Origin: Candidatus Aerophobetes bacterium Ae_b3b
Lineage (GTDB): Bacteria > Aerophobota > Aerophobia > Aerophobales > AE-B3A
DNA: 64,000 bases
NCBI GenBank assembly: GCA_005223085.1
Contig: NJBP01000003.1
Span: forward strand, 2,406 to 66,405
Direction of reading: 5' to 3'
Shown piece by piece: positions 18,731-35,655 of the stretch (positions are counted from its first letter, which is position 1; each line of letters opens with the position of its first letter). The notes under the pieces were generated by a model. It did no database searches. It saw only the letters and a program-made list of their open reading frames with translations, and was not told the origin of the DNA. Both the position numbers and the translations under genes were made by a program.

Positions 18731-18991
18731 TTTTATCTCTCCGATATTTCATTGATGCTGTCATCAGGGCCTTGTTGTAGTTATCTCTCATCGACGGAGG
18801 TAAAAGCGGACTGATGACTTCCCACTGCCTGTCTGTAAATCACTTCTGGCCACCCTCCTATCTTATCCAACTTTTGAAGCTACTTCTAGTATTTCTTCGC
18901 CTCTTCCTTGTCATCTATTAGCTTCATCAGCTGTGCCAACTTCATGGCAGCACTGTATCTCTACTCTCCCTCCCTGGTTAACCATCAAAAG

Positions 18992-19861: not shown

Positions 19862-19879
19862 TCCATCCACCTCAAAGGT

Positions 19880-20722
19880 TCAGTACTCAAGTTTCATCCG
19901 AACGCTCTCACCAAGCATGAACATGGCTTGAAAAGCTTTGAAGAGCTCCAAGAAGTCGCTGGAAGTCAAAGACACTGTCGTACCACTCTTTCTTTCTGTG
20001 CCAGGGATTAGAGAGGCTGCATCCGCCATGTTCGTCATAAAGAAATCCACTTCTATGATCGTTGGGGTGTTGTAAACGAGCGGTGACATATCTTTTATTC
20101 TCCTTACTGCCATTCTGGCCATTTTTTTGATCACTTCGTTTGCCTTTGATAGAGGCAAACACTTTGCGGAGGTCATATTTATAGCCTTCTTTATGACAGC
20201 TACTTCGACTGTACCAAGCTGAGACTTTGCCTCCTCGGCTACGACGTTGTCACCTACTACTAGGGTGGTAGGCACGTTGAAATATCCGGCAATACCTGCA
20301 CTGACGCCGAGTTCTCCAACCGATTTACCATTGAGTCTGACGTCTCTTATACTCAGAGGGCAAAAAGAATGGTTCAAAACACCAGGGTGTGAGCCCATTT
20401 TCGCGTGGTAGCCTATGAGGAATGCGGCATCAAAGGTCTCATCAACTCCCTCCATCATGCATAGGGGTTTAGGTTGACCAGTTACGAGCTCGACGTTCTC
20501 GTCGTCGAACCTGTCGATCAAGAGGTTCCTCATCGTGTTGTGCGAATCGTTTATAACAAACTCCGTAGCATTTGCCTCTTTGGCCCCTTTGATTGCGGCG
20601 TTTACGTGTTCACACATAATGTGTCTGTCCCTGCCCCACTCTCCTGGATCAGCATTCTTTGAAAATTCCCAGTGTGTCTTACCAGCTCTGCCTTCCATAT
20701 CTGCTGAAATAAATACTTTCAT
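19880..20722 (-). CDS. dppA: D-aminopeptidase DppA (peptidase family M55)
   Basis: MKVFISADMEG.. N-terminus with NDSHN and GYHA motifs. The start at 20722 follows a GGGAGGA RBS; the ORF-track start at 20749 adds 9 unsupported codons. Confidence 0.8.
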   Translation of the reverse strand: MKVFISADMEGRAGKTHWEFSKNADPGEWGRDRHIMCEHVNAAIKGAKEANATEFVINDSHNTMRNLLIDRFDDENVELVTGQPKPLCMMEGVDETFDAAFLIGYHAKMGSHPGVLNHSFCPLSIRDVRLNGKSVGELGVSAGIAGYFNVPTTLVVGDNVVAEEAKSQLGTVEVAVIKKAINMTSAKCLPLSKANEVIKKMARMAVRRIKDMSPLVYNTPTIIEVDFFMTNMADAASLIPGTERKSGTTVSLTSSDFLELFKAFQAMFMLGESVRMKLEY

Positions 20723-20746
20723 TTTTAATCCTCCCAGGGTCTTGCC

Positions 20747-21002
20747 CAAGTTTGTGGCAAAGTTATAGAATTAATGTAAGATTCTGTTTCATCTTCCGCT
20801 CTTTGAAAATAGCTCATCACAAGATGAGGCCTAAAAGATTTGGAACAAGCTATACCTTGAAGGCTGACACAAGAAAAATGGCCATCTTAAAAAGACGTCA
20901 CGCTATTTATGAGTGTCCCTATGTGTGAGTATCTGTTTACCTAGAATTTTCGCTCAAATTAGCATTTGACAACGAAAAGGACGAGCAATTGCCACAAACT
21001 TG
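20747..21002. repeat. 256-bp non-coding element bounded by perfect 14-bp inverted repeats (CAAGTTTGTGGCAA ... TTGCCACAAACTTG)
   Basis: Read directly. IR-L is 20747-20760 and IR-R is 20989-21002. It lies in the ABC ATPase-dppA gap. No obvious target-site duplication. Confidence 0.6.
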
Positions 21003-21034
21003 AGTAAATTTCCTCCTGCCCTTTTTTTAGATTA

Positions 21035-22075
21035 TCAGCTATACAAGAAGCAGGATACAAGATGTCCTTTATCTGGACCGATTAGCTTGGGCTCTTCTTT
21101 ACTACACCTACTAAATGAAAACGGGCACCTCGTATGGAATCTGCATCCTGCTGGTGGATCAATAGGGGAAGGAACCTCCCCGGTAAGCTCTATTCTATCG
21201 ATTCTGTAAACTTCGCTTAGCAGTGGGCTGGATGAGGCTAATGACTTGGTGTAAGGATGGAGGCACTTTTGAAAAAGCTCCTTAGTTGGTGCCAACTCCA
21301 CCAGTTTACCCAAATACATGACACCAACAGTGTCCGAAACGTGACGTATCACAGAAAGGTCGTGTGCAATGAAGAGATAAGTTAAATCCCTTTTGTTCTG
21401 CAATTCCATAAGGAGATTCAGTATTTGCGCTTGTATGGATGTATCCAGAGCGGTTACTGGCTCATCCAGCACGATGAATTTAGGTTCTGTCGCTAATGCG
21501 CGGGCTATTGCGGCCCTCTGCCGCTGTCCTCCACTTAGTGCTTTTGGTTTTTTCGTGTAAAATACCTCGCTGAGCCCGACCTGGCCAAGTAAGTCTAGGC
21601 AATATTCTTTTATCATGTCCCTCTTGACGATTTCATGATGATTGATCACCTCCTTTAACATATTTCCAATTATCTTGTGTGGAGGCAAAGTCGAGTAGGG
21701 ATTTTGAAATACGACTTGCACCTCCTTTCTAAGCTTTTTGAGCTGCCTATCTGCTAAAGAACGGATGTTCTGCCCGAAAACTCGAATGTTACCAGCAGTA
21801 ATTGATTCGAGTCTAAGAACACACCTGCCTAAGGTCGACTTTCCGCAACCGCTCTCACCTACGAGTCCAAATGTCTCGCCTCTCCTTATGTCCAGGGAGA
21901 TATCGTCTACAGCTTTAACATACTTCTGTTCCCTCACAAGGATTTTGTCGATAAAACCCTTTCTCAGCACATAGTACTTTTTCAGATGGCCGATTTCTAT
22001 AACTGTCTCATTTCGGGAGATTTCTTTCATTTTGTTCTTGTGGTCCGAGACTATATCTACATCCAACGTCAGCAC
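21035..22075 (-). CDS. Dpp/Opp-type peptide ABC transporter ATPase (OppF-like)
   Basis: Walker A GESGCGKST, signature LSGGQRQR, Walker B VLDEP, and the C-terminal oligopeptide-transporter Cys motif region (GCRFHTRCP). Confidence 0.85.
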   Translation of the reverse strand: MLTLDVDIVSDHKNKMKEISRNETVIEIGHLKKYYVLRKGFIDKILVREQKYVKAVDDISLDIRRGETFGLVGESGCGKSTLGRCVLRLESITAGNIRVFGQNIRSLADRQLKKLRKEVQVVFQNPYSTLPPHKIIGNMLKEVINHHEIVKRDMIKEYCLDLLGQVGLSEVFYTKKPKALSGGQRQRAAIARALATEPKFIVLDEPVTALDTSIQAQILNLLMELQNKRDLTYLFIAHDLSVIRHVSDTVGVMYLGKLVELAPTKELFQKCLHPYTKSLASSSPLLSEVYRIDRIELTGEVPSPIDPPAGCRFHTRCPFSFSRCSKEEPKLIGPDKGHLVSCFLYS

Positions 22076-23079
22076 ACCCCCTGAAAACCGTGGTTCTTAG
22101 ACCGCGATAGTCTCTTGGCATCTTCTGGTTTTATGCAACGAATACTGTGATTTTCATCGATTTTTCTAAGTTCTATACTTTCTTGGAGGCAGCCTTCATC
22201 CCCTATTGGACACCGAGGGTAAAATTTGCATCCTTGGTGAGGAATTTCACTGAGCTCGCCCATTATAGTTGGAATCTTACCCTTAGGTTCGTAGTATATT
22301 ACGTTGGATCTAAGCAATCCGAATGTATAGGAGTGCAAGGGGTTTTCGAAAACGGTTTTCACCGTCCCCTGTTCCATTAATGTGCCAGCATACATTACAT
22401 TCACATAGTCACATATGCGCTTGATGACTCCGAGATCGTGCGTTATCCACAGCACCGAAACACCTATCTCACCTATGAGTTCCTCGAACTCATTCAAAAT
22501 CTGGTTTGCGATAGTTACATCTAGAGCTGTTGTCGGCTCATCCGCGATGATCAGTGACGGCTCGCAGCTCATTGCCATAGCGATCGTCACTCTTTGAATC
22601 ATCCCACCGCTGAGTTCGTGAGGATAGTTGTCAAAACGTTTTTCCGGGTCCGAGATCCTAACTTTCCTGAATAGATCTATTGCCTTCGTCTTTGCCTCCT
22701 TCTGTCCAATATCTTGGTGGAGCTTCAAAACACTAGTAATCTGTTCTCCAACGGTAAACAGTGGATTGAGCGATACCATTGGATCCTGAAAGATCATCGA
22801 GATCTCATTCCCCCTGATTTTGAACTGCATCTCCTTCTCGCTTAATTCCCTTATATTTATACCTTTAAAAATTATCCCACCGGACACGATTCTACCTGTT
22901 TCCGGCAGGATCCTAAGGAGCGAGTTGGCAATTGTGGTCTTGCCACTTCCCGACTCACCTACGAGGCCAACTACCTCCCTTTCTCTTATCGAAAGGTCGG
23001 CACCATCCACCGCCTTGACGATTGCCCCGTTTCCCTCAAAGTACGTGTGGAGGTCCTTTATTTCTAGTAAATTCATCAT
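22069..23079 (-). CDS. Dpp/Opp-type peptide ABC transporter ATPase (OppD-like)
   Basis: GESGSGKTT, LSGGMIQR, IADEPTTALD, and C-terminal GCKFYPRCP. Confidence 0.85.
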   Translation of the reverse strand: MMNLLEIKDLHTYFEGNGAIVKAVDGADLSIREREVVGLVGESGSGKTTIANSLLRILPETGRIVSGGIIFKGINIRELSEKEMQFKIRGNEISMIFQDPMVSLNPLFTVGEQITSVLKLHQDIGQKEAKTKAIDLFRKVRISDPEKRFDNYPHELSGGMIQRVTIAMAMSCEPSLIIADEPTTALDVTIANQILNEFEELIGEIGVSVLWITHDLGVIKRICDYVNVMYAGTLMEQGTVKTVFENPLHSYTFGLLRSNVIYYEPKGKIPTIMGELSEIPHQGCKFYPRCPIGDEGCLQESIELRKIDENHSIRCIKPEDAKRLSRSKNHGFQGVC

Positions 23080-23975
23080 TATTTCTCCAACATGTCTCGC
23101 AGGCCATCGCCGATCAGGCTAAAACCTATCACGGTATACATGATCCCAAGTGCTGGAAAAGTAGCAATCCACCAACCCACCTGCAGCAACTGCCTCCCTT
23201 CGGCTATCTGCGCCCCCCACTCAGGAATTGGGGGTTGTGCACCAACGCCAACAAAACTGAGGGAAGCTGCAACTAATATAACGAGTGCACAGTCAAGCGA
23301 AGCGTAAACAATGGTCGGCGCGATGGAGTTCGGCATCAAATGCCCGAATATTATTCTTTTGTCCGAAAAACCAACAGCTTCAGCTGCTCTGACATAATCC
23401 TCTTCCTTTTCTGAGAGGTACCTACTTCTAACAATCCTAGCATACTGACACCAACTTACAATAGCAATAGCAAAATACAAGTTTTTGAGACCGGGACCGA
23501 AGATAGCCATGATGGCAATGACAAGTACCAGAAAAGGAAAAGCCATAATCGAGTCAACAATGCGCATGATTATGGTATCGATCCAACCCTCGTAATAACC
23601 GGAAAGTGCTCCTGCTAAGTTGCCTACGATGAAGGCGATTCCGACACCGATTACGCAGATTTTCACTGCTATCCAGGCGCCGTGGATCACCCTTGACATT
23701 ACATCTCTCCCATACAGATCCGTGCCAAATAGGTGGCTAAGCCCTGGTGGTTCAAGGCTCTCAGTTAGGACCTGTTGGTACGGATCGTAAGGAGCGATGA
23801 AAGGCGCGAATATTCCTACCAGGGTTAATATACCGATCATTATCAGGCCGATTCTGCTATTAGGATTTCTGATAATTTTCTTTACTGTCTCCCATCTCGC
23901 GATGTTTTCATCGCCGAAGAGAAGGTTAATGGAACGAGATATTACACTGCCTGCATTCCTGTTATTCACTCTCAA
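23079..23975 (-). CDS. Dpp/Opp-type ABC permease (DppC/OppC-like)
   Basis: Multi-TM protein with an N-terminal OppC-type segment and an EAA-like loop (AAEAVGFSDKRIIFGHLMPN). Confidence 0.8.
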   Translation of the reverse strand: MRVNNRNAGSVISRSINLLFGDENIARWETVKKIIRNPNSRIGLIMIGILTLVGIFAPFIAPYDPYQQVLTESLEPPGLSHLFGTDLYGRDVMSRVIHGAWIAVKICVIGVGIAFIVGNLAGALSGYYEGWIDTIIMRIVDSIMAFPFLVLVIAIMAIFGPGLKNLYFAIAIVSWCQYARIVRSRYLSEKEEDYVRAAEAVGFSDKRIIFGHLMPNSIAPTIVYASLDCALVILVAASLSFVGVGAQPPIPEWGAQIAEGRQLLQVGWWIATFPALGIMYTVIGFSLIGDGLRDMLEK

Positions 23976-24913
23976 CTCCTGTAGATCCGTGGGTCTATTA
24001 ATCCATAAATGATGTCAACGATGTAGTTGTTTAACATTATTGCTAATGCAAATACAAGACTAATGCCCTGTATCAAGGGATAGTCCCTTACTATCACGGC
24101 ATCTAATAACATCGCCCCTATCCCAGGTAGAGAGAATACTGTTTCGATCACCACCGACGATCCGAGGAGCCACCCTAAGTTCAAACCAAGAACGGTAATA
24201 GTAGGCAAAAGCGCATTCTTGAGGACATACTTCAGATAAATTGTCCTGTCCGAGAAGCCATACGTCCTTGCTGTTCGTATATACTCTTTTTGCAAAACCT
24301 CGATCATATCTGACCTAAGAGTTCTCGTAACAAGAGCAGTCAGAAACAGTCCGAGGATGAAACTGGGGAGAAATAGGTGATATATGTTATCTAGCAGACC
24401 TGACCCCCATCCCCTAGTGGGGAACCAACCCAATCGGAGGGCGAAGATATTGAGGAATAGAAGACCCGTCCAGAATTCCGGCATCGAGAAGACGAAAAGT
24501 GACGAGATTCGCGCCACATAATCGGGGAACTTGCCACGGTGTTTCGTCGCCCATAAGCTGAGCGGAAGCGAAATGATAACGCAAAATACTGCTGACATAA
24601 AAACCAGCGAGAGCGTCACTCTTAACCTTGAAAAAATCAACTCAGTAATTGGAGCCTTATAGCGAATTGATGTTCCCAGGCTTCCACGTGCAAGCTGTGT
24701 GAGAAACACGTAAAACTGCTTGTGTAGTGGCTCATTGAGACCGAGACTCTTCCTCAGTTGCTCGAGGCGCTCCGGTGTAGCCATGATACCAAGTATATTC
24801 TTGGCTGGATCACCAGGTATGAAATGCAGCATAAGGAATACTATAAACAAAACAATGAATAAAACGGGTATCATTTCGAGAAATCTTCTTAGAGCATATC
24901 GTTCAAGAGACAT
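23972..24913 (-). CDS. Dpp/Opp-type ABC permease (DppB/OppB-like)
   Basis: IPGDPA N-terminal motif and an EAA loop (YIRTARTYGFSDRTIYLKYVLKNA). 313 aa. Confidence 0.8.
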   Translation of the reverse strand: MSLERYALRRFLEMIPVLFIVLFIVFLMLHFIPGDPAKNILGIMATPERLEQLRKSLGLNEPLHKQFYVFLTQLARGSLGTSIRYKAPITELIFSRLRVTLSLVFMSAVFCVIISLPLSLWATKHRGKFPDYVARISSLFVFSMPEFWTGLLFLNIFALRLGWFPTRGWGSGLLDNIYHLFLPSFILGLFLTALVTRTLRSDMIEVLQKEYIRTARTYGFSDRTIYLKYVLKNALLPTITVLGLNLGWLLGSSVVIETVFSLPGIGAMLLDAVIVRDYPLIQGISLVFALAIMLNNYIVDIIYGLIDPRIYRS

Positions 24914-25003
24914 AGGAGGTCACCCTAAGGTAAGCCGTTCATTGATATTTGGAACCATGGTACCTTGGGAGGAACCCACGGCACCATGGTTCTCGGGAAT
25001 ATT

Positions 25004-26527
25004 TTACTCTTCTATCCAGACATATTCCCACCTGTAGAAATCGTTAGCCGGGACCAGGAAACCATGTACGTTTGTCCGCATCGCTGTCGGGTTAGGAGTC
25101 GTCGTGACAAAGATCTGGGCGGCATCCTCATGTACTATTCTTTGTATGTCATAGTAAATCTCTCTTCGCTTCTCTTCGTCCAGGGCTACTCGCCCTAAAG
25201 CGTACAACTCTTCCACCCTGAGGTTGTGATAGTCGGAGAAATAAGCTTGATTTCCTGCATAGGATATTCCGAAGTCGGTTAACAGATCATCATCTAATAT
25301 GTCACTCGTATAGTAGTCAGGTGAAAGTTCATACTTCCTCGCAATTAGTCGATCCCACCTTGTTCCCTCTTCAACCTTTTCGATGGTAGCCTCGATGCCA
25401 ATATCCCTCAGATTCTGCTGGAGAATCGTTGCCATACTGATCATCATAGGCTCCCCGGCAGTGGCCAAAATGGTCGTCTTAAATCCTTTTTCGTATCCAG
25501 CCTCCTTCAAAAGCTGCTTGGCTTTTTCTGGATCGTAGGAGTATGGTTCTAGCTGATCATTGTAGTACTGAACTGGCGGCATGTAGGATGGAGCTATCTC
25601 ACCGTATCCGAAGAGTACGGTGTCAATGAAGCCCTGCTTGTTCATGGCATAGTTTAGAGCTTGTCTGACCTTCACATTGTTGAATGGCTCAATGCCGCAG
25701 TTAATTTTAACGAAGTCGTGGCGCCAAATTGTATCGACCGAGACTTTTACATCGGGGTCAGCTCTGAGGATCTCGATCTCACTGAATGGTACATAAGCGG
25801 CGACGTCAACGCTTCCGTCGCGAACTGCGAGTGTCCTCGATGTTGCGTCGGGCATTATGTAGTAATAGAGTTTGTCCACCTTGGGTTGTCCTTCTCGCCA
25901 ATAGTCTTCAAATTTGGAAAATAGTATCTCCTCGCCAGGTTTCCAATGTTCGAATTTGAACGGACCGGCCCCTATCGGATGTCGTCCGAACTTTTCGGTG
26001 CCACCAACTTCCAGGAAGTATTTCTCTGGAATTATGGCGGCATTGAACATAGCTAAATCCGCCAGTATCGGGGCATATGGAGCGCTCAATCTTATCTCGA
26101 CAGTGTACCTATCCACAGCCACCATCTCCTCAATCGGTTTGAACATATCCGCATAGGGACATTGCTCTGGGTCACGCGTCCTGTTCAGTGAAAATACGAC
26201 GTCTTCAGCAGTCACTTCGTTTCCATTGTGAAATTTTGCACCTTTCCGGAGATGGAAGGTGTAGATCAAATTGTCATCCGAGACCTCCCATGACTCAGCC
26301 AAGTCAGGTTCGATATATGTGGAATCATCAGATACCCGGACCAAACAATCATGAGCATTGTGCAAAGCCCATAGCGACGGATTGTCGGAGGGACCAACTG
26401 GATCCAAGGTCTTAGGTTCCGAGATCCAAGCCACTCTCAACACGCTCTCACACTTTTCTGCTCCAAGCCCAACCACAATGGCTAAAAGCATCGAAATCGT
26501 TAGTAGTGTTACAATCCCTCTCCTCAT
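25004..26527 (-). CDS. ABC substrate-binding protein, family 5 (peptide/nickel type)
   Basis: Signal-anchor N-terminus, 507 aa, with family-5 SBP features (LDPV.., GPFKFEHWKPGE). Confidence 0.8.
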   Translation of the reverse strand: MRRGIVTLLTISMLLAIVVGLGAEKCESVLRVAWISEPKTLDPVGPSDNPSLWALHNAHDCLVRVSDDSTYIEPDLAESWEVSDDNLIYTFHLRKGAKFHNGNEVTAEDVVFSLNRTRDPEQCPYADMFKPIEEMVAVDRYTVEIRLSAPYAPILADLAMFNAAIIPEKYFLEVGGTEKFGRHPIGAGPFKFEHWKPGEEILFSKFEDYWREGQPKVDKLYYYIMPDATSRTLAVRDGSVDVAAYVPFSEIEILRADPDVKVSVDTIWRHDFVKINCGIEPFNNVKVRQALNYAMNKQGFIDTVLFGYGEIAPSYMPPVQYYNDQLEPYSYDPEKAKQLLKEAGYEKGFKTTILATAGEPMMISMATILQQNLRDIGIEATIEKVEEGTRWDRLIARKYELSPDYYTSDILDDDLLTDFGISYAGNQAYFSDYHNLRVEELYALGRVALDEEKRREIYYDIQRIVHEDAAQIFVTTTPNPTAMRTNVHGFLVPANDFYRWEYVWIEE

Positions 26528-26650
26528 TTTTTATCTCCTTTGGTTAAATTATAAAGTGTTACTCTACTTATTCTTCTTTCGAACCTTGTCATCTATCACC
26601 CCCTTCAGAAGGTACTCTACATTTCATTCTCATCTATCACCCCCCTTGCT

Positions 26651-26860
26651 CTACTCTCCAATCTCCTTAATCCAACTATTGAAACCGTTACCGACCTTCG
26701 TCTCAATTACCCCGACAATTTGGAGAACGCATAAAGCTTCCCCAATAACTGGCCGACCTACCTCAGTCAAACTGGCAATACGATTTTCGGAGGGTAACTT
26801 ATTACCCTTTCTATATTCCTCTTCCCTGATCGACTGGAGGACTTGCCCTGCTATTTCCAT
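26651..26860 (-). CDS. GntR-type winged-HTH domain only (effector domain missing; truncated regulator)
   Basis: LPSENRIASLTEVGRPVIGEALCVLQIVGVIETKVGNG matches the GntR wHTH, and the ORF stops immediately after it. The ORF-track start at 26941 lies at or above the predicted TSS, so Met28 (26860) is preferred. Confidence 0.5.
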   Translation of the reverse strand: MEIAGQVLQSIREEEYRKGNKLPSENRIASLTEVGRPVIGEALCVLQIVGVIETKVGNGFNSWIKEIGE

Positions 26861-26943
26861 AGCTTTTCTCTTCCCGGTTTCCTGAACTTTCTTGAAGGTT
26901 GCTTCCAACCTCCAATACAAATCTGAATATCTGTAGCACAAGC

Positions 26944-26972
26944 ACTATACCACCATTCTCGAAATTTGTCAA
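26944..26972 (-). promoter_or_regulatory. Near-consensus sigma-70-type promoter (TTGACA-17-TATAGT) reading into GntR' and the dpp operon
   Basis: Reverse complement of 26967-26972 is TTGACA, and of 26944-26949 is TATAGT. The spacer is 17 nt. The -35 coincides with the left edge of repeat R. Confidence 0.5.
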
Positions 26973-27112
26973 TTCTTTTGGCTATAATGATACTGCCCAC
27001 TTTCTATTAGATTTTAGAGAGTTCGGAAAAGCTTTTATTTTATTTCAAAAGCGAAGGGAGTTATCTACCAAATCACTATTTTTCACATTATTTTTCAGAA
27101 CGTTATCCCCAA
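26966..27112. repeat. Repeat R, copy 1 (about 147 bp; intergenic sequence downstream of the lplA-like gene, includes the promoter -35)
   Basis: Aligns with 50808-50950 at roughly 80% identity by eye, with one ~11-nt indel (ttcttttggctaYaatgatact ... attagattttagaga ... ggaacgttatccccaa). Confidence 0.75.
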
Positions 27113-27559
27113 TCTCTTCTCAAATCCCAGAATGAGACTATTTATTATTTTTCCCCGATCTTTTTGCTCTTTCCTACTTTTAGGGGTAATCTTGCTGTCG
27201 ATCAGAATCGACCCGTGCTGGAAAAAGGCTTTGTTTTTCCTCCTTTGAGCGCTTCCCCCAATTTTTCTTCCGTCTTCAACGACATCGTATTTGGAGGGAT
27301 TGACAAAACAAAAATAAGGATCAGGTCTTTCAGTCTCTTTTCTTTCTAACTCGGCGTTTATCCCCAAATTTTGTAGACCGAGGATTATCGCCTCATGAAC
27401 TAGCTGCTGCGTTTTTGTAATATCCCTAAAGGCAGGAAATTCATTGGTAGAGCAAGCTAAAGAATAGGTTATCTCATTTCTATGAAGTATCGCACCTCCT
27501 CCGGCAAAGCGCCTCACAATGATTAGTTTTTGTCTTTTATATCTTTGCAAGGAAGGTCT
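27095..27559 (-). pseudogene. Lipoate-protein ligase / octanoyltransferase family gene (BPL_LplA_LipB), 5'-truncated
   Basis: VRRFAGGGAILHRNEITY corresponds to the RRxSGGGAVxHD motif, which normally sits about 60-70 aa into the protein. GRKIGGSAQRR is the catalytic Lys region, and FFQHGSILID is also present. The N-terminal ~60 aa are replaced by a gyrA fragment. Confidence 0.7.
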
Positions 27560-27756
27560 AGGCTAGCTCGCTTGACCAGCCTGGAGAGGCATAAAGTGGA
27601 CCAGGATTATGCCGAATCGGTAAAAAAAATAGGAAAGCTAGAGGAGATGCTGGTAAAGGAGCCCCTGATTTGGGCAACCATTAAGGAAGAACTTGTCCAG
27701 ATTAAGCAAAAATATGGAGAAGAGAGGCGTACCCGGATTAAGACCGTAGTAAAGGA
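27560..27756 (+). pseudogene. gyrA internal fragment (copy of nt 14102-14298)
   Basis: About 93% nucleotide identity by hand count (~14 mismatches, no indel). It is still in frame: [61 protein letters not shown]. Confidence 0.9.
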
Positions 27757-28021
27757 TAAACCTGACCGCACCGGGACCAACTCCAAACTTTAAATCTGCT
27801 TCATGTGCAGCTTTGATTAATCTTGGGTCATTAGAAATACCCAGGTAACTGTTGGAGGCAAAATTTAAGAGGACACGCTTATCACTCATAACTATTTTTC
27901 TACTAAATTCATCTTGAGGAGGCACTATATCAACAATGACTTTTTCTTTCCCCTTCAGTCTACCTTCCTTCTCTAATAGTTTTAACTTTGCATCTAAAAC
28001 AGGCGTTAGTTTGTTAAGCAT
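27755..28021 (-). pseudogene. kbl 5' fragment (copy of nt 18464-18730, including the start codon)
   Basis: About 93% identity by hand count (~18 mismatches in 267 nt, no indel). It encodes MLNKLTPVLDAKLKLLEKEGRLKGKEKVIVDIVPP... Homology stops exactly at the ATG. It has its own GGAGGA RBS. Confidence 0.9.
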
Positions 28022-28044
28022 CTTCTATCCTCCAACGCCATCCG

Positions 28045-28767
28045 CTATCGCTTCTTGGCCGGGGGTAAGGGATAGGTGATTCTACTATATGATAGTTTCA
28101 TATCTATAAGCCCCTCTGCATACTTAATCATGGCATGTACCGGGTCAATGACTGGCACCCTATATGACGCTTCCCATAGATCTCTCTGTAGGCTCGCTGC
28201 CATCCCCACCATGCCGGTACATCCTAGCGTTATCACTTGAGCGCCGTCCCTTTCAATTGCGGTCTTTGATTCTTCAAACAGCCTTTGCTCAATCTTCTTC
28301 CAGTTTTTGTCCAGCTCCAGCACTGGCATCTGTATATCTCTGATGGATGCGATCTTGCAAGCCAACCCGTAGATGCGAGCCCGATTCCACATCCGTGGTT
28401 TTACCTGAGGCAAAACCGTAATGATCGAGAATCTTTGACCTAACATGGAAGCTAGGTGCATACTGGTTTCTGCGGCTCCGATAATCGGGATGCCAGCTAC
28501 TTCTCGCGCTGCATCAATTCCGGGATCTCCAAAACAACTGATCATACAGGCATCCGCGCCACTCTTCTCAGCGTCCTTGGCCGCGCGCAAAATACCCGGT
28601 TCAGCTGCTACCACATCATACTCACACTCAATCGAAGCTGGGCCCTCTTCCAGACTTACCACCTGAACCTGAACGCCTTCTCTTGCAATTGACTTACACT
28701 CCTGTGCGGTCCTACGCTCAAGCTCCTCAAACTTTAGTATTGGCAAGAGCATGACCAGTTTTGTCAT
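28045..28767 (-). CDS. Asp/Glu/hydantoin racemase family protein (HyuE-like), copy 1
   Basis: Both catalytic-Cys regions are present (ISCFGDPG and LGCTGM). GPASIE and PVIDPV are also present. 240 aa. Confidence 0.75.
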   Translation of the reverse strand: MTKLVMLLPILKFEELERRTAQECKSIAREGVQVQVVSLEEGPASIECEYDVVAAEPGILRAAKDAEKSGADACMISCFGDPGIDAAREVAGIPIIGAAETSMHLASMLGQRFSIITVLPQVKPRMWNRARIYGLACKIASIRDIQMPVLELDKNWKKIEQRLFEESKTAIERDGAQVITLGCTGMVGMAASLQRDLWEASYRVPVIDPVHAMIKYAEGLIDMKLSYSRITYPLPPAKKR

Positions 28768-28832
28768 ACTTCCGTCCTCCCTTATTAATGGTTGCTAGCC
28801 GAGAGCCAACCCCAATTCCTGGTACTCCTAGC

Positions 28833-29654
28833 CTAAAACCTGAACCCGGCAAACCACTTGTCCAAGTTTGTAAACCGATTCACTATGAGCATTGACGACA
28901 CCACTATTGCGATAGAAACAGCACCAGCAGCGGCTACTCTGGGGTCATGGGAGAAGCGCAACGTGCTGTAGAGAGCTACGGGCAATGGATCCAAGTCTGG
29001 CGTGCTCAAATATAATGAAATGCTAAATTGGCCAAAAGAATAGATAAAAGCCAAGAAACCACCTACCATAATGCTCGGATAGATATTGGGCAACGTAACC
29101 TTAAAGAATGCCTGAATCGCATTTGCCCCCAGGATCCTGGCAGCGTTTTCGATGTCGATGTTGAAGTTAGACAAGGCTCCAACTACGGTAATAACCACAA
29201 AAGGCATCGCGATGATTATGTGTCCGACCAATAGACCTGGAAACGAGCGCGTCAATGCGCCAATATTGATGTAGTAGGCATAAAGCGCCAGACCGATCAC
29301 AGCTCCCGGAATCATCAGCGGAGCTACCAACAGCGCCTGCAATAAATCTCTTCCCGGAAACCTAACCCGAACCAGAGCAATTGAAGCAGGGATACCGAGA
29401 AGCAAGGCACCTATAGATGCTGCAGCCGCCAAGAGCAAGCTAAGCGTAAAGGATTGCGTGAATAGTGCTGAGGTCAAGTACGCAGTGATCCAACGGACTG
29501 AGAACCCCTTCAGGGGAAAGGAAAGGTATGAAGCGCTATTGAAGGAAGTCAACACCACAACCACCGCCGGAGCTATGAGAAGTGCACTTGCTATGACAGC
29601 AATTAATCTAAATCCACGTGGGTAGCCTTCTCGATAGTAGCGCTGCTTGTTCAT
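28833..29654 (-). CDS. Pot-type (spermidine/putrescine-like) ABC permease, PotC-like
   Basis: Six predicted TM segments and an EAA-type loop (ENAARILGANAIQAFFKVTLPNI). Confidence 0.75.
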   Translation of the reverse strand: MNKQRYYREGYPRGFRLIAVIASALLIAPAVVVVLTSFNSASYLSFPLKGFSVRWITAYLTSALFTQSFTLSLLLAAAASIGALLLGIPASIALVRVRFPGRDLLQALLVAPLMIPGAVIGLALYAYYINIGALTRSFPGLLVGHIIIAMPFVVITVVGALSNFNIDIENAARILGANAIQAFFKVTLPNIYPSIMVGGFLAFIYSFGQFSISLYLSTPDLDPLPVALYSTLRFSHDPRVAAAGAVSIAIVVSSMLIVNRFTNLDKWFAGFRF

Positions 29655-29681
29655 TTTCTGATCTCCGCAACAGAAGATGGT

Positions 29682-30557
29682 CTAGACTGCCAACATCCGT
29701 TTCGTGTACACCCGCGAATAGTAACGGATCAAGGCGAAAACCACCATCAGGTTTGTCAGCAACAGTACAATTGCAAAAGCCGCACCCCGTTGCCACAAGC
29801 CCTGATTTGAAATCTGTTGATAAACGTAAACCGGCAAGACAGCCCTTCCCCAACCTCCAAGTAGCACCGGTATCAGGTATGAGCTCATGGAAATTGCGAA
29901 CGCAAACAGCACACCGGTGATGATGCCCGGCACACTCAAAGGAAGCTCAACTTTCATAAATCCTTTCCACCTGTTGCATCCCAGTAATCGAGCCACGTTC
30001 AGAAGGTCAGGCGAGATACTTTCAATAATACCTATCAAAGGCAAGATTAGAAACGGCAGACTCAGATTTACCAAGCCGACTATGACCCCAAAGGAATTAT
30101 ACATCAAGGGAAGAGGGCGAGAAATGACCCCAGCTCTTATCAGACTTCCGTTGATTAGACCGTTATCACCCAGTATAGTTAAGTAGCCAAAAATCCGGAC
30201 TGTCAGATCTATCTGCATCGAAGAGAATACCAGGATCACCAGGAACGCTTGAACTCGCTTACTGGCGGTCCTCGCGATCATATAAGCCACAGGATATCCG
30301 ATCAGTAGGCATATCGCGGTAGCCGCCGATGTTAACCACAAAGAATTGATGAGACTTTGCCGATAAACCGGGTAGCTGAAGAAGAGTTTGAAATTCTCCA
30401 GCGTTAGTACCGGCTTGATCGCTATGCTTCCCAGCTCCTTTGGATTGAATGCAAGGGCCAATAAGGTGAAAATAGGCACGATGAAGAAAAAGGTGAAGAA
30501 CGCAAGGACGGGTAGAGCAAGAACCACAGTCCTATTCTCTCTAAGCATTCGTATCAT
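29682..30557 (-). CDS. Pot-type ABC permease, PotB-like
   Basis: Multi-TM protein with an EAA-type loop (NVARLLGCNRWKGFMKVELPLS). Confidence 0.75.
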   Translation of the reverse strand: MIRMLRENRTVVLALPVLAFFTFFFIVPIFTLLALAFNPKELGSIAIKPVLTLENFKLFFSYPVYRQSLINSLWLTSAATAICLLIGYPVAYMIARTASKRVQAFLVILVFSSMQIDLTVRIFGYLTILGDNGLINGSLIRAGVISRPLPLMYNSFGVIVGLVNLSLPFLILPLIGIIESISPDLLNVARLLGCNRWKGFMKVELPLSVPGIITGVLFAFAISMSSYLIPVLLGGWGRAVLPVYVYQQISNQGLWQRGAAFAIVLLLTNLMVVFALIRYYSRVYTKRMLAV

Positions 30558-31666
30558 TCTTCAAGCCTTTCATTCTTATTTGCACCTATAACCACCACAC
30601 CTGCTGGTTCCCAGCAAATTCTGACTTTGGACCCTTCGGTAAAACGGTTCTCGCTGGTGTTAATCGCATAGATATCGATCTGTTGATTACCCACCACCAG
30701 GGCTTTGTGCCTCAGTAGCGCTCCCTCGTAACTGCTTTGCAGAATTGAACCTTCAAAGCTGTTCACAGTTGAAGTGGTGCTAGCTGCGCTTTCCATGACT
30801 GAGATAGCCTCAGGCTTAACAAAAACATTGACAGGCTGACCTACTTCGAAAGTTCTGTTTCTTATAGTCGCGGTCACCTCGAAGCCTACGGTAAGTCTGA
30901 CTTGGACCTGATTGTCGTCTATGGTGGTCACGGTACCCTCGAAGCGGTTTGTCAGGCCCATGAAGTCCGCTACAAACATAGAAGCCGGGCTTTCATAGAT
31001 TTCTTGCGGGGTACCAATTTGTTCCACTCTACCAGCGTTTAGGACCAGAACATGGTCAGACAGTGATAGGGCCTCACTTTGGTCGTGAGTGACATAGATT
31101 GTTGTGGTTGTAAGATCTTCTTGAAAACTTCTCAGCCAGAATTTCATCTCTTCCCGGAGCTTCTTATCGAGGGCGCTAAGGGGTTCATCCAGAAGGAGGA
31201 CTTTGGGGTTTGGCGCTACTGCCCGAGCCAAAGCCACCCTTTGCTGTTCGCCTCCGCTCAACTGGTGAGGGTACTTCTTTTCATATCCCAGCAAACCTAC
31301 CCGATCTAACAGATCATGGACCTTAGTTTGAACGTGGCTCTCGCTCAGGTGTCTTAGCTTAAGCCCGAAGGCTACATTGTCGTAAACACTGAGGTGCGGG
31401 AATATCGCGTAGTTCTGAAATACCAACCCCAGACCCCGTTGCTCAGGTGCAAGACCTGTAATCTCCTTTCCATCCAGCAAAATTGAACCGTTGGCCGGAG
31501 TCGTTAGGCCTGCGATCATTCGCAGTATCGTGGTCTTGCCAGAACCACTTGGGCCGACCAGCGAAAAGAACTCACCGCTTTTTATGGTAACGTTGACTTG
31601 AGAAACAACCGTCAGTTTGCCATACCTCTTTGTGAGATCGACCAGTTGCAATGCTGAAGTTAACAT
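30554..31666 (-). CDS. Pot-type ABC transporter ATPase (PotA-like, with C-terminal TOBE-like domain)
   Basis: GPSGSGKTT, LSGGEQQRVALARA and LLDEPLSALD. 370 aa. Confidence 0.85.
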   Translation of the reverse strand: MLTSALQLVDLTKRYGKLTVVSQVNVTIKSGEFFSLVGPSGSGKTTILRMIAGLTTPANGSILLDGKEITGLAPEQRGLGLVFQNYAIFPHLSVYDNVAFGLKLRHLSESHVQTKVHDLLDRVGLLGYEKKYPHQLSGGEQQRVALARAVAPNPKVLLLDEPLSALDKKLREEMKFWLRSFQEDLTTTTIYVTHDQSEALSLSDHVLVLNAGRVEQIGTPQEIYESPASMFVADFMGLTNRFEGTVTTIDDNQVQVRLTVGFEVTATIRNRTFEVGQPVNVFVKPEAISVMESAASTTSTVNSFEGSILQSSYEGALLRHKALVVGNQQIDIYAINTSENRFTEGSKVRICWEPAGVVVIGANKNERLEE

Positions 31667-31722
31667 CTATTCCCCTATTACACCCAAATCATTCTGGATA
31701 CATAACCTCGTGCTGATAGTTT

Positions 31723-31763
31723 TCTGAAGAGACCAGGGGAGAGCGCTAGTTGATTCCCGACAC
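31723..31763 (-). terminator. Stem-loop just downstream of the SBP gene (9-bp stem CCAGGGGAG/CTCCCCTGG); candidate intra-operon attenuator
   Basis: Inverted repeat read directly. It sits about 23 nt after the SBP stop. The loop is 23 nt and the U-tract is weak. Confidence 0.35.
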
Positions 31764-31785
31764 CCTCCCCTGGTAATGACCACAG

Positions 31786-32880
31786 TTAGTGCCCAGCGAA
31801 AATGGATTCTGCCATCCTCACAATCTCGTCTTCATTCTCCCTGTACCAGGTGTACTCAGGAACCCAGATTTCCGCCACCGCTTCCGCAGTGTTCTTGACG
31901 CCCCATTTTGCCAACTTCTCCGGGACCCTTACGTATTTGTTGGTGGAGCGCAATCCTAAGCTGACTTCAGCTAATTCATACTGCCACCTTGCACTCAGGG
32001 CGCGGTTTATGAAGGCGTAGGCTAGCTTTTTCTCCAGGGCAGAGACATGCTTGGAGACAGTGAAAGTTTGGCTGAGGATTGCCCGGTAGCCTTTGGGCCA
32101 CCATACTACTCCTAGCGGCAATCCTGCCTCAAGCATCGTATAAAGCTCGCCGTCCCATTGTTCACCTATGACAACTTCGCCCTTTTCAAGGAGCATTTGC
32201 ATTGTGCCCGTGAAATCAACGATCTTCATAGGCATAGAGTCCTTCATTGCCTTCTCCATGGTGGCAACGTCGTGCGGGCCTTCGCCAAAAACCTGTGCGG
32301 CAGTCATCCACAAAGGCGGAAAGAGACCGTTCGAGGTAATATAACTGGCACGCATTCCATCAAATCTATCCTCCCAAAAATCGGCGAACTCTGCCGGATG
32401 AGGTTCTTCGACAAGGTCCTTTCGATAAACGAAACAATGCTCACCAAACCCCCATGTTACGCCTGTCCCACTTAGCCAAGCGAAGTCCCAAATCTGATCT
32501 GCATTAGGGATGTTAGCCTTGATTTCTTCAATATCAACGAAGAAATCACCTGCGTTTGCAGCTTTACTCATCTGAAAGAGATTCCAGTTGCTTACGGCGT
32601 GCGGTGGGTTCTTTTCTCCTCCTGCTACATACTTGGGGAACCATGGCCAGCCACCGTCGTAGCTGACCTTGCAATTGAAGTCCTTTTCAAATTCCGGGAT
32701 AAACTTCTCCATCCATTGTTCTTTCCAAAATCCCCCCCAATTCCCAAGGCGAAACGTTGCTCCTCCTGCATCAAAAGTTCCCCCGGTGTAGAGTATTTCC
32801 GGCTCTGCAGCTTGCCCAACGTAACTGAAACCCATTAGCAACCCTAACAACGCAACCAATAAGATACTAGATCGTTTCAT
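31786..32880 (-). CDS. ABC substrate-binding protein, PotD/PotF-like (family 1)
   Basis: Signal peptide (MKRSSILLVALLGLLMGFSYVGQA). 364 aa. First gene of the Pot-type operon. Confidence 0.7.
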   Translation of the reverse strand: MKRSSILLVALLGLLMGFSYVGQAAEPEILYTGGTFDAGGATFRLGNWGGFWKEQWMEKFIPEFEKDFNCKVSYDGGWPWFPKYVAGGEKNPPHAVSNWNLFQMSKAANAGDFFVDIEEIKANIPNADQIWDFAWLSGTGVTWGFGEHCFVYRKDLVEEPHPAEFADFWEDRFDGMRASYITSNGLFPPLWMTAAQVFGEGPHDVATMEKAMKDSMPMKIVDFTGTMQMLLEKGEVVIGEQWDGELYTMLEAGLPLGVVWWPKGYRAILSQTFTVSKHVSALEKKLAYAFINRALSARWQYELAEVSLGLRSTNKYVRVPEKLAKWGVKNTAEAVAEIWVPEYTWYRENEDEIVRMAESIFAGH

Positions 32881-33185
32881 CTCAATTCTCCTCCTTTCTT
32901 AATTGGCAAAGTTTCTCGACAGTTTTCTCTATAGATATCACCTCCCACATTTTTGAATTAAGGATGATGCATAGCCGTAGCGTAGTGCAAATCCTGGTTT
33001 GTTTATCGTCCTCGTCCATGGGATACGACGTTTTACCAATCGGTGTCTCGGTCGGAGATCACGGCCAAAACTCACGGGTTACCTATTGCAGAGAGCTTCT
33101 CTCCTCCGTTTCCCCTTAAACGAGGTTAGCTATTCCTTTGACCAAGGAATCTCCGCTCCCGAATTCAAACATCACCCTTGTTCAC

Positions 33186-33214
33186 ATTATCTACCTTGAT
33201 TCTCCTCTTGTCAA
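33186..33214 (-). promoter_or_regulatory. Near-consensus promoter (TTGACA-17-GATAAT) about 300 nt upstream of the Pot-type SBP start
   Basis: Reverse complement of 33209-33214 is TTGACA, and of 33186-33191 is GATAAT. The spacer is 17 nt. Confidence 0.5.
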
Positions 33215-33259
33215 ATGCTCCGAATGTCGACTAAAGAACTACCAGAATGACCTTTATCT

Positions 33260-34393
33260 TCAACCTTCTCCTCTCTTAGCGACGGTTTCGATGGGTTGGT
33301 ACTCAATGTCAAAGCCAAAGTGAGGTGGTCCCAGAATATCGAGCCCTTTGGGGGAGCGGAACTGTTCTACCGCACGTAACCCGATAACCGCTACAGAGTG
33401 TCCTTCAGCAATATGAGAGTTGGCGAAGGGCTCTCCGCTTTCGCGGTCAACTACAATTATCATGTCTGGACTGGTAACGTAAGGCTCGCCGTTAAGCCAC
33501 GAGATGTGGTTTTCATTCTTAAACCAAATCTTAAATTCTTGTCCAGCAAATCGGCCGATCCCAGACAGGGTGTGGGTACCCCAATAGTATCCTTCTTTAT
33601 CTTCCCACTCTTTGTTCGAAATATGCCCCTCAAACAGCAACCATCCATTCAATTGTTTTACCGTTTCTTCCACTGGGTTCCGGCCAGCCGCCCTGCTGGT
33701 GCGAATTAATCGACCAATTTCTAGACATTTGGAAAGAGTCTTAGGAATGAGCGCCCTCTTCATATCTTTACCCTTGAGCAAAAACCCTGCCTGACCTGCT
33801 AGTCCAAACGAGGCAGCAGCGAGAAATTTCCCCATTCTTTCCGCCATCTCATATCCGGTGCTTTCCGTAATAATAGCCTTGTTGCCATACTTATCTATAC
33901 TAGCAATTGGCCAGAGACTGAGACCGTTGAGATAGGGAGTTGTTTGAGGAATTTCAGGAATTGCGCGTCCCGTATAATCACCGTCTACTATGGGGACCCT
34001 CAACCGAGCTGCCGCCACAACTGCACCGGGAGTGTTCGATCCACCAAGTTCAATAGGAACGATCGCTTGGATCTCCGCTTTGGTATAGCTCTCTAGCAAA
34101 CGCACAGCCTCAGCCTGGATGCTCTTAACCGGCTCCTTAGTAAGACCAAGTGCCTGCATTCTCTGTTTCGCCTCCTCTGTACGTGGTGCAATGGAACCCA
34201 TAAGAAAGGGACACACCGTCCAGGCATCATCCTTGACCTCTTCGTACGGGGTGAACGAGAGAGTCAAATCTTCATCCAGTGCCGTCCGGAGCCAATCTAT
34301 CCCATCTTTAGGATCACCGCCCCCTCCTGTTCCCATGAGGGTACAACCCCGCACGAAATCATGAATGTCTTGCTCGTTCTGAATCTTTACCAT
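33260..34393 (-). CDS. DUF917-family protein (hydantoinase/oxoprolinase-associated family of unknown function)
   Basis: The N-terminal GCTLMGTGGGGDP motif and the length (377 aa) fit my recollection of DUF917. No catalytic assignment is possible from sequence alone. Confidence 0.55.
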   Translation of the reverse strand: MVKIQNEQDIHDFVRGCTLMGTGGGGDPKDGIDWLRTALDEDLTLSFTPYEEVKDDAWTVCPFLMGSIAPRTEEAKQRMQALGLTKEPVKSIQAEAVRLLESYTKAEIQAIVPIELGGSNTPGAVVAAARLRVPIVDGDYTGRAIPEIPQTTPYLNGLSLWPIASIDKYGNKAIITESTGYEMAERMGKFLAAASFGLAGQAGFLLKGKDMKRALIPKTLSKCLEIGRLIRTSRAAGRNPVEETVKQLNGWLLFEGHISNKEWEDKEGYYWGTHTLSGIGRFAGQEFKIWFKNENHISWLNGEPYVTSPDMIIVVDRESGEPFANSHIAEGHSVAVIGLRAVEQFRSPKGLDILGPPHFGFDIEYQPIETVAKRGEG

Positions 34394-34472
34394 ACCATCC
34401 TCCTTTGCCCAATAGTGTCAAACGTAAATATTCAGTGAGGAACGTTCCATGTTGTTGACTGCAAAGAGCAGA

Positions 34473-34556
34473 GCGGGTAGCCGCACCCTTTAGGGTGCGT
34501 ATAAACGCAGGCTAAGATTTTGCGCAGGCTGAAGCCTGCGGCTACCAGCGGCTACC
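34473..34556. repeat. REP-like nested-palindrome element
   Basis: The outer stem GGTAGCCGC (34476-34484) / GCGGCTACC (34538-34546) encloses two hairpins: CGCACCC-ttta-GGGTGCG (34482-34499) and CGCAGGC-tgaa-GCCTGCG (34523-34540). GCGGCTACC is directly repeated at 34548-34556. Confidence 0.55.
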
Positions 34557-34635
34557 GAGATTGCTTCGCTGGCAATGGGATTCACTAAGTATTTACCCTT
34601 CCTCCCAGTTCAGTTGGCGCAGTCTCCGCATTGGT

Positions 34636-35655
34636 TCATTCTAGGACCACGAGCTCTTCTGCTCGAGCTGCGAGTTCCTCAGCTCGATGGCACCAAACCA
34701 GGTGCCCAGGTCCCACTTTTACTGGAGAAGGTAACTCCTGGGAACATCTGGATTCAGCTATAGAGCATCTTGGATGGAAGGCGCACCCACCCGGCGGGTT
34801 CACTGGGCTTGGGATCTCACCTTCTTTGCTCATTTCTCGAGGTTTAACGCGTTCTTCCTCTTTGGATACGACCGGCGTAGCTGCAATCAGGGTCTTCGTA
34901 TATGGATGGACAGGATGACTAAAGAGCATTTCCATGGTGCCCAGTTCATAAATCTTTCCCAGATACATCACCCCTGCCCTGGCAGCAATTGTCCGCACTA
35001 AGCCTAGATTATGAGTAATAAAGAGATACGATAAGGCTAATTCCTTCTTGAGTCTAAGGAAAAGATTTATCAGTTTTGCTTGCACGGATACATCCAACGC
35101 TGATGTCGGTTCATCCAAAACCAGGAAAGAAGGATTTACAGCTAAGGCTCGAGCGATGGCAATCCTCTGTCTCTCACCCCCACTGAGCGCAGATGGATAT
35201 TTGTACATATAGCGGCTTGGCATCTCTACCTGTCCCAGCAATGTATGGATTATTCTCTTTCGCTCAACCCTTGATTTCCCTATTCCATGTATGATAAGCG
35301 GATCCTCTAAAATACTCATGACACTGCGCCGAGGATTTAATGAGGACTTGGGATCTTGAAAAACCATCTGTACCTCGCGGCGGAACCGTCCGATAGTTTG
35401 CTTGGTCAATTTTGACAAATTTTGTCCCTTGAAATAAATCATCCCACTTGTGGGGTTATAAATTTGCACAATAGTTTTCGCCACTGTAGATTTCCCTGAT
35501 CCTGACTCTCCAATTAATCCAAAGATCTCTCCTTTCTGCACGTCAAAAGAGACTTTGTCCACTGCTTTGACATGCGCCACTATCTTATGAAGGAGGCCTG
35601 AGCGAATAGGGAAATATTTCACTAGATTCTCGACCTTCAACACTGGCTCACTCAT
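34636..35655 (-). CDS. Opp-type peptide ABC transporter ATPase (OppF-like)
   Basis: GESGSGKST, LSGGERQR, VLDEPTSALD and GCAFHPRC. I moved the start to the ATG at 35655, which overlaps the upstream gene's TGA (ATGA). The ORF-track start at 35775 would overlap OppD by 124 nt. Confidence 0.85.
   Translation of the reverse strand: MSEPVLKVENLVKYFPIRSGLLHKIVAHVKAVDKVSFDVQKGEIFGLIGESGSGKSTVAKTIVQIYNPTSGMIYFKGQNLSKLTKQTIGRFRREVQMVFQDPKSSLNPRRSVMSILEDPLIIHGIGKSRVERKRIIHTLLGQVEMPSRYMYKYPSALSGGERQRIAIARALAVNPSFLVLDEPTSALDVSVQAKLINLFLRLKKELALSYLFITHNLGLVRTIAARAGVMYLGKIYELGTMEMLFSHPVHPYTKTLIAATPVVSKEEERVKPREMSKEGEIPSPVNPPGGCAFHPRCSIAESRCSQELPSPVKVGPGHLVWCHRAEELAARAEELVVLE

Follow-up and report, generated by a model that had tools for sequence, protein, structure and literature searches.

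Introduction

Homology-facilitated illegitimate recombination is known from natural transformation in Acinetobacter, Streptococcus pneumoniae and Pseudomonas stutzeri. Tandem-duplication join points that decay into gene remnants are a known outcome of segmental duplication in bacteria (reviewed by Reams and Roth). Here we compare with these systems, and also with Campbell-type single-crossover integration and genomic islands of the att type, a pair of gene fragments located between positions 27560 and 28033 of a 64-kb stretch of DNA (64,000 nt, hereafter the window). One fragment derives from gyrA and the other from a kbl-like gene.

The locus is similar to a tandem-duplication join point. A right end (lplA) is fused head-to-tail to a left end (gyrA) where homology is scarce or absent; deletion then removes the redundant copy and leaves promoter-less truncated fragments behind. 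However, the two units are unequal in gene content, and functional counterparts of the relic alleles are found in other lineages. It is therefore probable that two different versions of one variable locus were joined, and not that a single version was duplicated. As in homology-facilitated illegitimate recombination, one crossover would be homologous and the other lies at a microhomology of 2-4 nt, and several kb of presumably foreign DNA are added beside a conserved anchor. Unlike in that process, the illegitimate end lies here inside the homologous block, which results in duplication instead of replacement; competence and incoming DNA would also have to be presumed for this uncultured organism.

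The insert lies between direct repeats (B and B′, described below) with one intact and one truncated copy of the gene, and the sequences of these repeats resemble the reciprocal products of recombination between two alleles. This makes the locus similar to the product of Campbell-type integration. However, plasmid or replicon functions are absent, and a circle needs two illegitimate joins (J1 and J2) unless J2 came later. The likeness to att-type islands is that core-gene ends are duplicated at variable borders: the copy of the fabD 3′ end reaches exactly to the stop codon, and that of the kbl 5′ end to the start codon. Integrase and tRNA genes are lacking, though, the repeats are long and diverged, and internal gyrA and lplA fragments stand at the borders.

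We suggest that 27560-28033 is most likely a non-functional recombination scar, left by a duplicative insertion (the J1 join together with a homologous crossover) with later deletion of the second copy. The scar is a well-documented case of a known phenomenon, relics of recombination join points along the edge of a hypervariable region, and not a new system.

Results

The parent locus and the relic pair

The parent locus consists of gyrA (12830-15238, plus strand; above the NCBIfam equivalog cut-off), a true fabD (15235-16158, plus strand), a weakly Tdh-like gene of the zinc alcohol-dehydrogenase family (16218-17492, minus strand) and a gene for a PLP acyltransferase of the BioF/Kbl family (17489-18730, minus strand). 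The latter scores 390 bits against a cut-off of 460 and is therefore termed kbl-like (kbl for short, as the preceding gene is tdh). Gene strand and GC skew switch at the fabD/tdh boundary. The GC content of the block at 28-40 kb is 0.49-0.50, compared with 0.38-0.45 elsewhere in the window. From ORF sizes the window had also been considered as an origin region (dnaA-dnaN-recF-gyrBA); this was rejected, since Pfam gave hydrogenase, MTHFR, TsaD, CtpA, AccA, gyrB and gyrA.

The features of the relic pair, of its parents and of their surroundings are as follows.

14102-14306, plus strand: A, the stretch of intact gyrA that matches A′ (self-blastn and alignment with the gyrA alleles of relatives)
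18464-18742, minus strand: B, the 5′ end of the intact kbl-like gene and counterpart of B′
27560-27763, plus strand: A′, the gyrA relic, GyrA codons 425-492 of 802, in frame, without a start of its own
27755-28033, minus strand: B′, the kbl-like relic, with ribosome-binding site, ATG at 28021 and codons 1-89 of 413
27755-27757: J2, at which a deletion of 4,158 nt brings gyrA nt 14306 next to kbl nt 18464, with GA/AGA microhomology
28045-28767, minus strand: racemase 1, an Asp/Glu/hydantoin-racemase gene, native upstream neighbor of kbl, its stop 23 nt from the relic ATG

Self-blastn of the window aligns 27560-27763 with 14102-14306 at 92.7% identity over 206 columns (E 2e-79) and 27755-28033 with 18464-18742 at 92.5% over 280 columns (E 1e-112), both in equal orientation. 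An earlier note on this DNA had counted about 93% by hand for the gyrA copy and for the kbl 5′ copy with its ATG, and had allowed that recomputed alignments might lose this identity; they keep it. Its structural description of a collinear second gyrA...kbl copy with an internal deletion also agrees with our self-comparison, where the parent pieces of the two relics are separated by 4,158 nt. The 2-3 nt shared at the gyrA/kbl junction are likewise found again (GA/AGA), and homology on the kbl side does end at the start codon and its ribosome-binding site. The statement that the gyrA copy has no indel is correct for the relic itself; the apparent compensated pair of 1-nt indels relative to the parent is an oddity of the window's own gyrA allele.

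The relic pair thus has significant nucleotide identity to full-length genes of the same genome, is truncated and lacks the parts needed for function. The two relic ORFs, including ORF 27530-27793, match no Pfam family. Exact-protein look-ups of the window's kbl, of its racemase and of both relic ORFs returned no match in an index that does not contain the window's own contig.

Composition of the additional 9,291 bp

B and B′ are direct repeats that flank an extra segment of 9,291 nt. It spans 18464-27754 and comprises the new kbl 5′ end, a 260-nt spacer, the PALP-M55-OppFDCBA cassette, a truncated gntR, the flank D, a truncated lplA and the gyrA relic. The features not yet listed are given below.

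18743-26970, minus strand: inserted cassette with a PALP enzyme, an M55 D-aminopeptidase, OppFDCBA and the truncated gntR; absent where the ancestral arrangement is found
26651-26941, minus strand: truncated gntR of 96 aa, reduced to the winged-helix domain by deletion of the FCD domain
26971-27084: D, non-coding flank downstream of lplA; the second copy at 50821-50934 is 81.6% identical
27095-27556 (ORF 27095-27550), minus strand: lplA relic, positions 50-152 of 200 of the LplA-B_cat profile
27556-27560: J1, where the 5′-truncated lplA meets gyrA nt ~14099-14102; the microhomology does not exceed 3 nt (compared with the intact lplA of contigs L040 and L041)

The cassette is modular. A homologue occurs in three contigs (L102-L104) at 80-82% nucleotide identity within unrelated flanks, and the homology ends at window positions 18989 and 26972. 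The GntR encoded there is full length, 258 aa with the FCD domain.

The flank D is also present in L038, L039, L051 and L070. It ends at the -35 box of a predicted strong minus-strand promoter (26972-26944; 11/12 match with extended TG). No Rfam family matches within the window, and D is therefore not a known riboswitch or sRNA.

About 60 N-terminal codons are missing from the lplA relic, and a 295-nt deletion between GGGATAA repeats took away its 3′ end; L038 and L039 keep these 295 nt. Intact lplA of 247-253 aa is the last gene of gcvH-gcvPA-gcvPB-lplA in six relatives (L040, L041, L042, L046, L048 and L051); therefore, it is lplA that J1 cuts. The downstream neighbors of lplA differ in every lineage, and the ~150-300 nt following it, D included, are conserved in several. 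The presumed donor arrangement, intact lplA beside D-gntR-Opp, was not found in the contig searches; L053 has an analogous, non-orthologous layout.

The resulting order at the gyrA/kbl seam is truncated gntR, D, truncated lplA, gyrA relic, kbl relic and racemase 1. J1 and J2 join sequences that are not neighbors in the parent and that have little homology, if any. Between the copies, identity is unbroken over 63-68 nt at most, and these stretches lie inside the repeats, away from the junctions.

Ancestral arrangement in relatives

Relatives were collected with a metagenome scan, for which the query ran from the kbl relic through the antisense gyrA stretch into the lplA relic (42 loci), and with exact-protein look-ups of homologues (25 further loci). 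A scan of a genome collection gave one close match, L035, which matches 18470-21236 at 98.5% and breaks off at the boundary of the repeat. Two contigs with inverted gyrA-fabD pieces (L076 and L077), which look like amplification or assembly chimeras, were left out.

Five independent contigs (L061, L092, L093, L094 and L099) carry a full-length kbl directly beside the racemase gene. The gene order in all of them is SMeTHD, ABC transporter 1 (ABC1), racemase 1 and then full kbl, and the 23-nt spacer between racemase and kbl is identical to the spacer beside B′. L092 runs on into tdh, and L061 (32.6 kb) through tdh, fabD, gyrA and gyrB. In the more distant L060 and L062 (89-91%) kbl-tdh-fabD-gyrA is linked to SMeTHD and a second Opp operon (Opp2). 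PALP-linked kbl is seen only in a clade of 98-99% identity, consisting of the window, L038 and L035. Hence, B′ marks the original position of kbl, and the 9,291 bp at 18464-27754 are derived. The fragments had been noted as core-gene pieces unexpected in a transporter region; this does not hold for the kbl piece, which stands at the native place of kbl.

In close relatives gyrB-gyrA-fabD on the plus strand is followed by the convergent tdh-like/kbl-like pair and then by minus-strand operons for transporters and amino-acid metabolism, whose content varies between lineages. The gcvH-gcvPA-gcvPB-lplA genes border such variable DNA on its downstream side. Almost all lineages have a sequence of their own upstream of the kbl start codon. 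The sequence after the fabD stop codon (+9 nt) differs as well: it is tdh-kbl in most lineages and two DDE transposases in L075. Group II introns lie nearby in L086 and L088, and involvement of IS elements in the wider region is possible. The gyrBA-fabD genes thus border a zone of exchangeable minus-strand operons, as gcv-lplA does in relatives. The window resembles a series of three versions of this variable zone, with relics of the flanks at each seam.

Alleles and age of the relics

The alleles of kbl are mosaic. The first ~128 nt of B′ are identical to the functional kbl allele of L092. In the intact kbl 5′ end nt 129-267 equal the L093 allele, and its first 128 nt (the start of B) are an allele that only the window and L038 share, with a partial occurrence in L061. 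A reading of B′ as a ~99% copy of the L061 kbl was rejected: the measured identity is 90.3% over the whole segment, and the mosaic showed in the alignment with L092 and L093. The pattern is suggestive of B and B′ being the reciprocal products of a crossover between two alleles inside the kbl 5′ end. Since alleles in this population are strongly mosaic, such allele-sharing arguments are suggestive and not proof.

The relics appear young. There are no stops or indels in their 874 nt, and one amino-acid change is unique to B′, nearly all others being polymorphisms of functional alleles. The dN/dS values for three relic-parent pairs are 0.51, 0.27 and 0.26, with 0.20-0.41, 0.06-0.16 and 0.15-0.26 for functional pairs, and most of the differences that enter them are shared polymorphisms. 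The divergence of ~7% therefore seems, from the aligned alleles, to be mostly allelic, and for the most part it would not record the decay of an in-situ paralogue. Many differences between A and A′ and between C and C′ (the fabD pair described below) are polymorphisms of functional alleles or oddities of the window's genes, and thus percent identity is unusable as a duplication clock. We note that among lineages with kbl sequences 4-10% apart the 28-40 kb block keeps an identity of 98.4-99.5%.

A second seam at 50.8-51.4 kb

The fragment pair is real and represents one of two seams, the other lying at 50.8-51.4 kb, with truncated lplA in both. The features of the second seam are as follows.

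50821-51016, minus strand: D′ and E′; D′ is the second copy of D (50821-50934), E′ a 57-nt lplA remnant (50960-51016)
51000-51402, plus strand: C′, fabD 3′ copy, last ~134 codons up to the stop codon; its 403 nt are 89.3% identical to 15756-16158
50821-51402: seam with J3, the lplA remnant E′ joined to fabD nt 15756 at 17-22 nt of imperfect homology

The two stretches 26971-27084 and 27411-27467 are together ~82% identical to 50821-50934 and 50960-51016. Features that had previously gone unnoticed are the fabD 3′ copy, the two copies of the lplA remnant with its flank and the truncated lplA to the left of the gyrA relic.

The order at this seam is racemase 2, D′, lplA remnant, fabD relic and a solute-binding-protein gene. 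L051 has intact gcvPB-lplA-D′-racemase2 in place of the seam. No contig with intact fabD beside the solute-binding-protein gene at 51579 was found; L090 and L091 (76-77%) have that gene in other contexts. C′ is common to the window, L070 and L080-L089, and what remains of it is 403 nt in the window, 273 nt in L070 and 123 nt, joined to a shortened D′, in L084-L089 (six samples). The junction of L070 connects lplA 27330 with fabD 15886, with another lplA breakpoint and a different right flank, and that of L084-L089 connects D′ 50894 with C′ 51280. The second seam is the product of the same kind of event as the gyrA/kbl seam. It is also the older of the two, because the fabD relic is common to lineages 5% apart and has been trimmed by different nested deletions.

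Discussion

Proposed formation of the scar

Step 1: In the starting state the resident chromosome would be of the L061/L092 type, with kbl at the racemase gene. DNA carrying gyrA-fabD-tdh-kbl-cassette-lplA may then have been joined to it by two crossovers. One would be illegitimate, between the middle of lplA and gyrA nt ~14100, with the formation of J1. The other would be homologous, in the common gyrA...kbl block, and probably falls within the first ~130-150 nt of kbl. The lineage of the window would in this way have gained 9,291 bp between kbl and racemase. A Campbell-style circle, tandem duplication followed by allelic replacement, and homology-facilitated illegitimate recombination of linear DNA are possible routes, which the data do not tell apart.

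Step 2: The expected result is a chromosome with two gyrA′-fabD-tdh-kbl copies flanking the cassette.

Step 3: The redundant second copy would have lost 4,158 nt at the GA microhomology of J2, and 205 nt of gyrA would thus be fused to 267 nt of kbl. A deletion before integration and one after it are both compatible with this scheme.

Step 4: Later microhomology deletions trimmed lplA and gntR. The truncations of both genes are seen directly in the window, and the stepwise course of the microhomology deletions is seen in the contigs that retain more.

Amplification in situ as an alternative

The same end product might be reached by tandem amplification in situ from gyrA nt 14102 through lplA, with one original lplA/gyrA junction, differential loss and allelic replacement, and without transfer between strains. 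The geometry of J1 is that of the join point of a head-to-tail duplication. One deletion of 1.74 kb between similar sequences of 17-22 nt would convert a J1-type join into J3. A star tree with slow parents also fits, the D/D′ divergence of 18% being close to that of A/A′ (7.3%) plus that of C/C′ (10.7%). However, the three units have no recent paralogues beyond the relics; the other paralogues are 25-56% identical at the protein level, and amplification would therefore need a huge differential loss. The relic alleles are identical to functional alleles of other lineages with almost no decay. D and D′ are followed by different operons, each of which has relatives with matching context (L051 and L038), and the block at 28-40 kb has its distinct GC content. 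Taking these points together we consider amplification in situ improbable, and prefer insertion by J1 and a homologous crossover.

Possible transcription and function of the relics

The relic ORF of 127 aa consists of Kbl residues 1-89 followed by 38 out-of-frame residues. Its intact ribosome-binding site and ATG, placed 23 nt past the racemase stop, would allow its translation together with the racemase operon. No terminator is predicted from 28045 to the promoter at 26972. Read-through therefore probably extends across the relics and would yield, among other products, an RNA antisense to gyrA codons 425-492. The gyrA relic is 93-95% identical to gyrA, and pairing of such a read-through RNA from the racemase operon with gyrA mRNA is conceivable, though more speculative still than the recurrent stacking considered under Implications. 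That the relics have been retained for either of them is nevertheless very unlikely. Neither relic ORF matches Pfam, and residues 1-89 alone can hardly form a working enzyme, as the Pfam aminotransferase match of the full-length kbl-like protein covers residues 50-401. Closely related lineages manage without the relics. Piece by piece, deletions are also removing the second seam and the neighboring relics of lplA and gntR, which is the pattern of neutral junk and makes a role unlikely. Judged from these sequence features, the relics are most likely without function.

Recurrence of the junctions in other assemblies

The earlier note had also raised the possibility of an assembly chimera, in which variants from different strains would have been concatenated into one contig, with the fragments as mis-joins. 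The population is indeed rich in strains and its alleles are mosaic; B′ and C′ are places where many contigs break, and L076 and L077 are clearly chimeric. Against this, no sequence is shared at J1 or J2 by which an assembler might be led astray, and both junctions recur in another sample. L038, from another metagenome (Ga0209986), covers window positions 27837-17408 at 98.4-99.6% with J1 and J2 included, and its gyrA relic differs from that of the window by three substitutions. J1 is also present in L039 from a third metagenome (Ga0114930), and the variants of the second seam recur in six samples. Six more contigs at 99.1-99.5% all end inside B′, which is usual assembly behavior because B′ is a repeat. 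L039 is the only contig carrying gyrA beyond J2: its additional 141 nt have 0 mismatches to the true gyrA. It may represent the state before the deletion; an assembly switch is also possible, given the absence of mismatches. The fragments are thus real, and we give hardly any weight to a chimera.

Even less credible is a site-specific integrative element or a transposon with target duplication, with B/B′ as attL/attR: direct repeats do flank a 9.3-kb cassette that is present elsewhere in other contexts, and some relatives have DDE transposases right after fabD or group II introns nearby, but no tRNA or tmRNA gene occurs in the 64-kb window and no integrase, recombinase or transposase is found among its ORFs scanned with Pfam (four Opp2/Liv ORFs being named by paralogy only), the repeats of 279 nt at 92% identity are unlike att cores or target-site duplications, and lplA and gyrA fragments at the ends of the insert are not the expected cargo of such an element. 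The fabD 3′ copies at 15756-16158 and 51000-51402 were also considered as attL/attR of a 35-kb integrative element; this candidate was rejected, with integrase and tRNA missing and the second copy adjoining an lplA remnant.

Implications

With duplicative insertion followed by deletion as the preferred reading, the relics have practical meaning. Short matches to gyrA, kbl and fabD at this locus are neither extra gene copies nor contamination, which calls for caution in annotation and binning. Such relics also mark the polarity of rearrangements and the boundaries of hypervariable regions. A transporter cassette was added here to the chromosome of an uncultured marine-sediment bacterium, probably a member of Candidatus Aerophobetes, without mobile-element machinery, as evidenced from many independent metagenomes.

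Finally, we tentatively propose that stacking at this locus is recurrent, versions of the region between gyrBA-fabD and gcv-lplA being added serially by illegitimate joins of lplA to gyrA or fabD; this is possible, but clearly less secure than the origin of the scar itself. The switch of gene strand and GC skew at the fabD/tdh boundary hints that stacking might be tied to a replication-termination zone. If stacking does occur, the window would consist of three such units, and long arrays of transporter operons would be built in this way in a slow-growing subsurface bacterium.

Second seam and other features near lplA and fabD

In the window, the second seam comprises the following stretches.

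51000-51402, with 50821-51016: second seam

At this seam the 3' end of fabD is present as a 403-nt copy, fused to what remains of an lplA gene (57 nt) and to a duplicate of the flank downstream of lplA; trimming of the seam differs in the related contigs L070 and L084-L089. Elsewhere, a deletion at 27103/27112 has removed 295 nt from the window. Among the lost nucleotides is a stretch downstream of lplA, found at ~900-1020 of a further related contig, L038, and conserved in several lineages (L070, L042-L045, L048, L049); this stretch holds a possible 38-codon ORF (MKFTELVEKLETKL...).

Pieces of gyrA-fabD are inverted or shuffled in L076 and L077 (JREQ and BARV records); the two contigs seem to be chimeras produced by amplification or assembly, and they were left out of the evidence.

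Near ~16160-16220 of the window the gene strand changes from plus to minus, fabD and tdh being convergent, and the cumulative GC skew reaches its maximum. The switch may mark a zone of replication termination, or it may be a mere coding-strand effect; a dif-like site was not seen in the fabD/tdh spacer, which was viewed by eye only.

Repeats and mobile elements

A repeat of ~175 nt with internal inverted repeats lies at 34424-34598 of the window. Extra copies are found at three places in the related contig L061, one of them between fabD and tdh, and the L075 copy is inserted at window position ~6795. The repeat looks like a small non-autonomous, MITE-like mobile element.

The GntR-Opp-M55-PALP transporter cassette of L102 is flanked by a 54-nt direct repeat (81%; 566-619 and 9875-9928), and a 150-nt sequence downstream of this cassette recurs in L104 (2571-2721), where it lies upstream of the cassette and in inverted orientation. 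Possibly these sequences serve as recombination sites, or they are small repeats linked to cassette mobility.

Relatives carry mobile elements at the following loci.

L086 464-1924: mobile-element locus
L088 1258-7019: mobile-element locus
L075 1811-4935: mobile-element locus

In relatives, the equivalent of the ABC ATPase gene at window 54675-55769 is interrupted by reverse transcriptases of group II introns and by a DDE transposase, and two DDE transposases lie immediately 3' of fabD in L075. None of these elements occurs in the window; since relatives carry them, mobile elements are active in the region across the population.

Blocks, cassettes and paralogues

Two paralogous genes without an assigned function (42870-43916 and 48974-50017, 56% identical) each adjoin one of two amino-acid transporter modules; the precomputed label of their L084 equivalents is PF26233 (NicX).

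The sugar-type ABC transporter cassette at 56835-60598 (two permeases and a binding protein) is missing from L080-L089, contigs otherwise 95-99.9% identical; it is a cassette presence/absence polymorphism.

One further block stands out.

28045-40296: racemase 1, ABC transporter 1, S-Me-THD and Opp2 (second Opp operon)

Its GC content is 0.49-0.50, against 0.38-0.45 in the surroundings, and its identity is 98.4-99.5% across lineages that differ by 4-10% in the neighbouring kbl. This suggests that the block spread recently between lineages.
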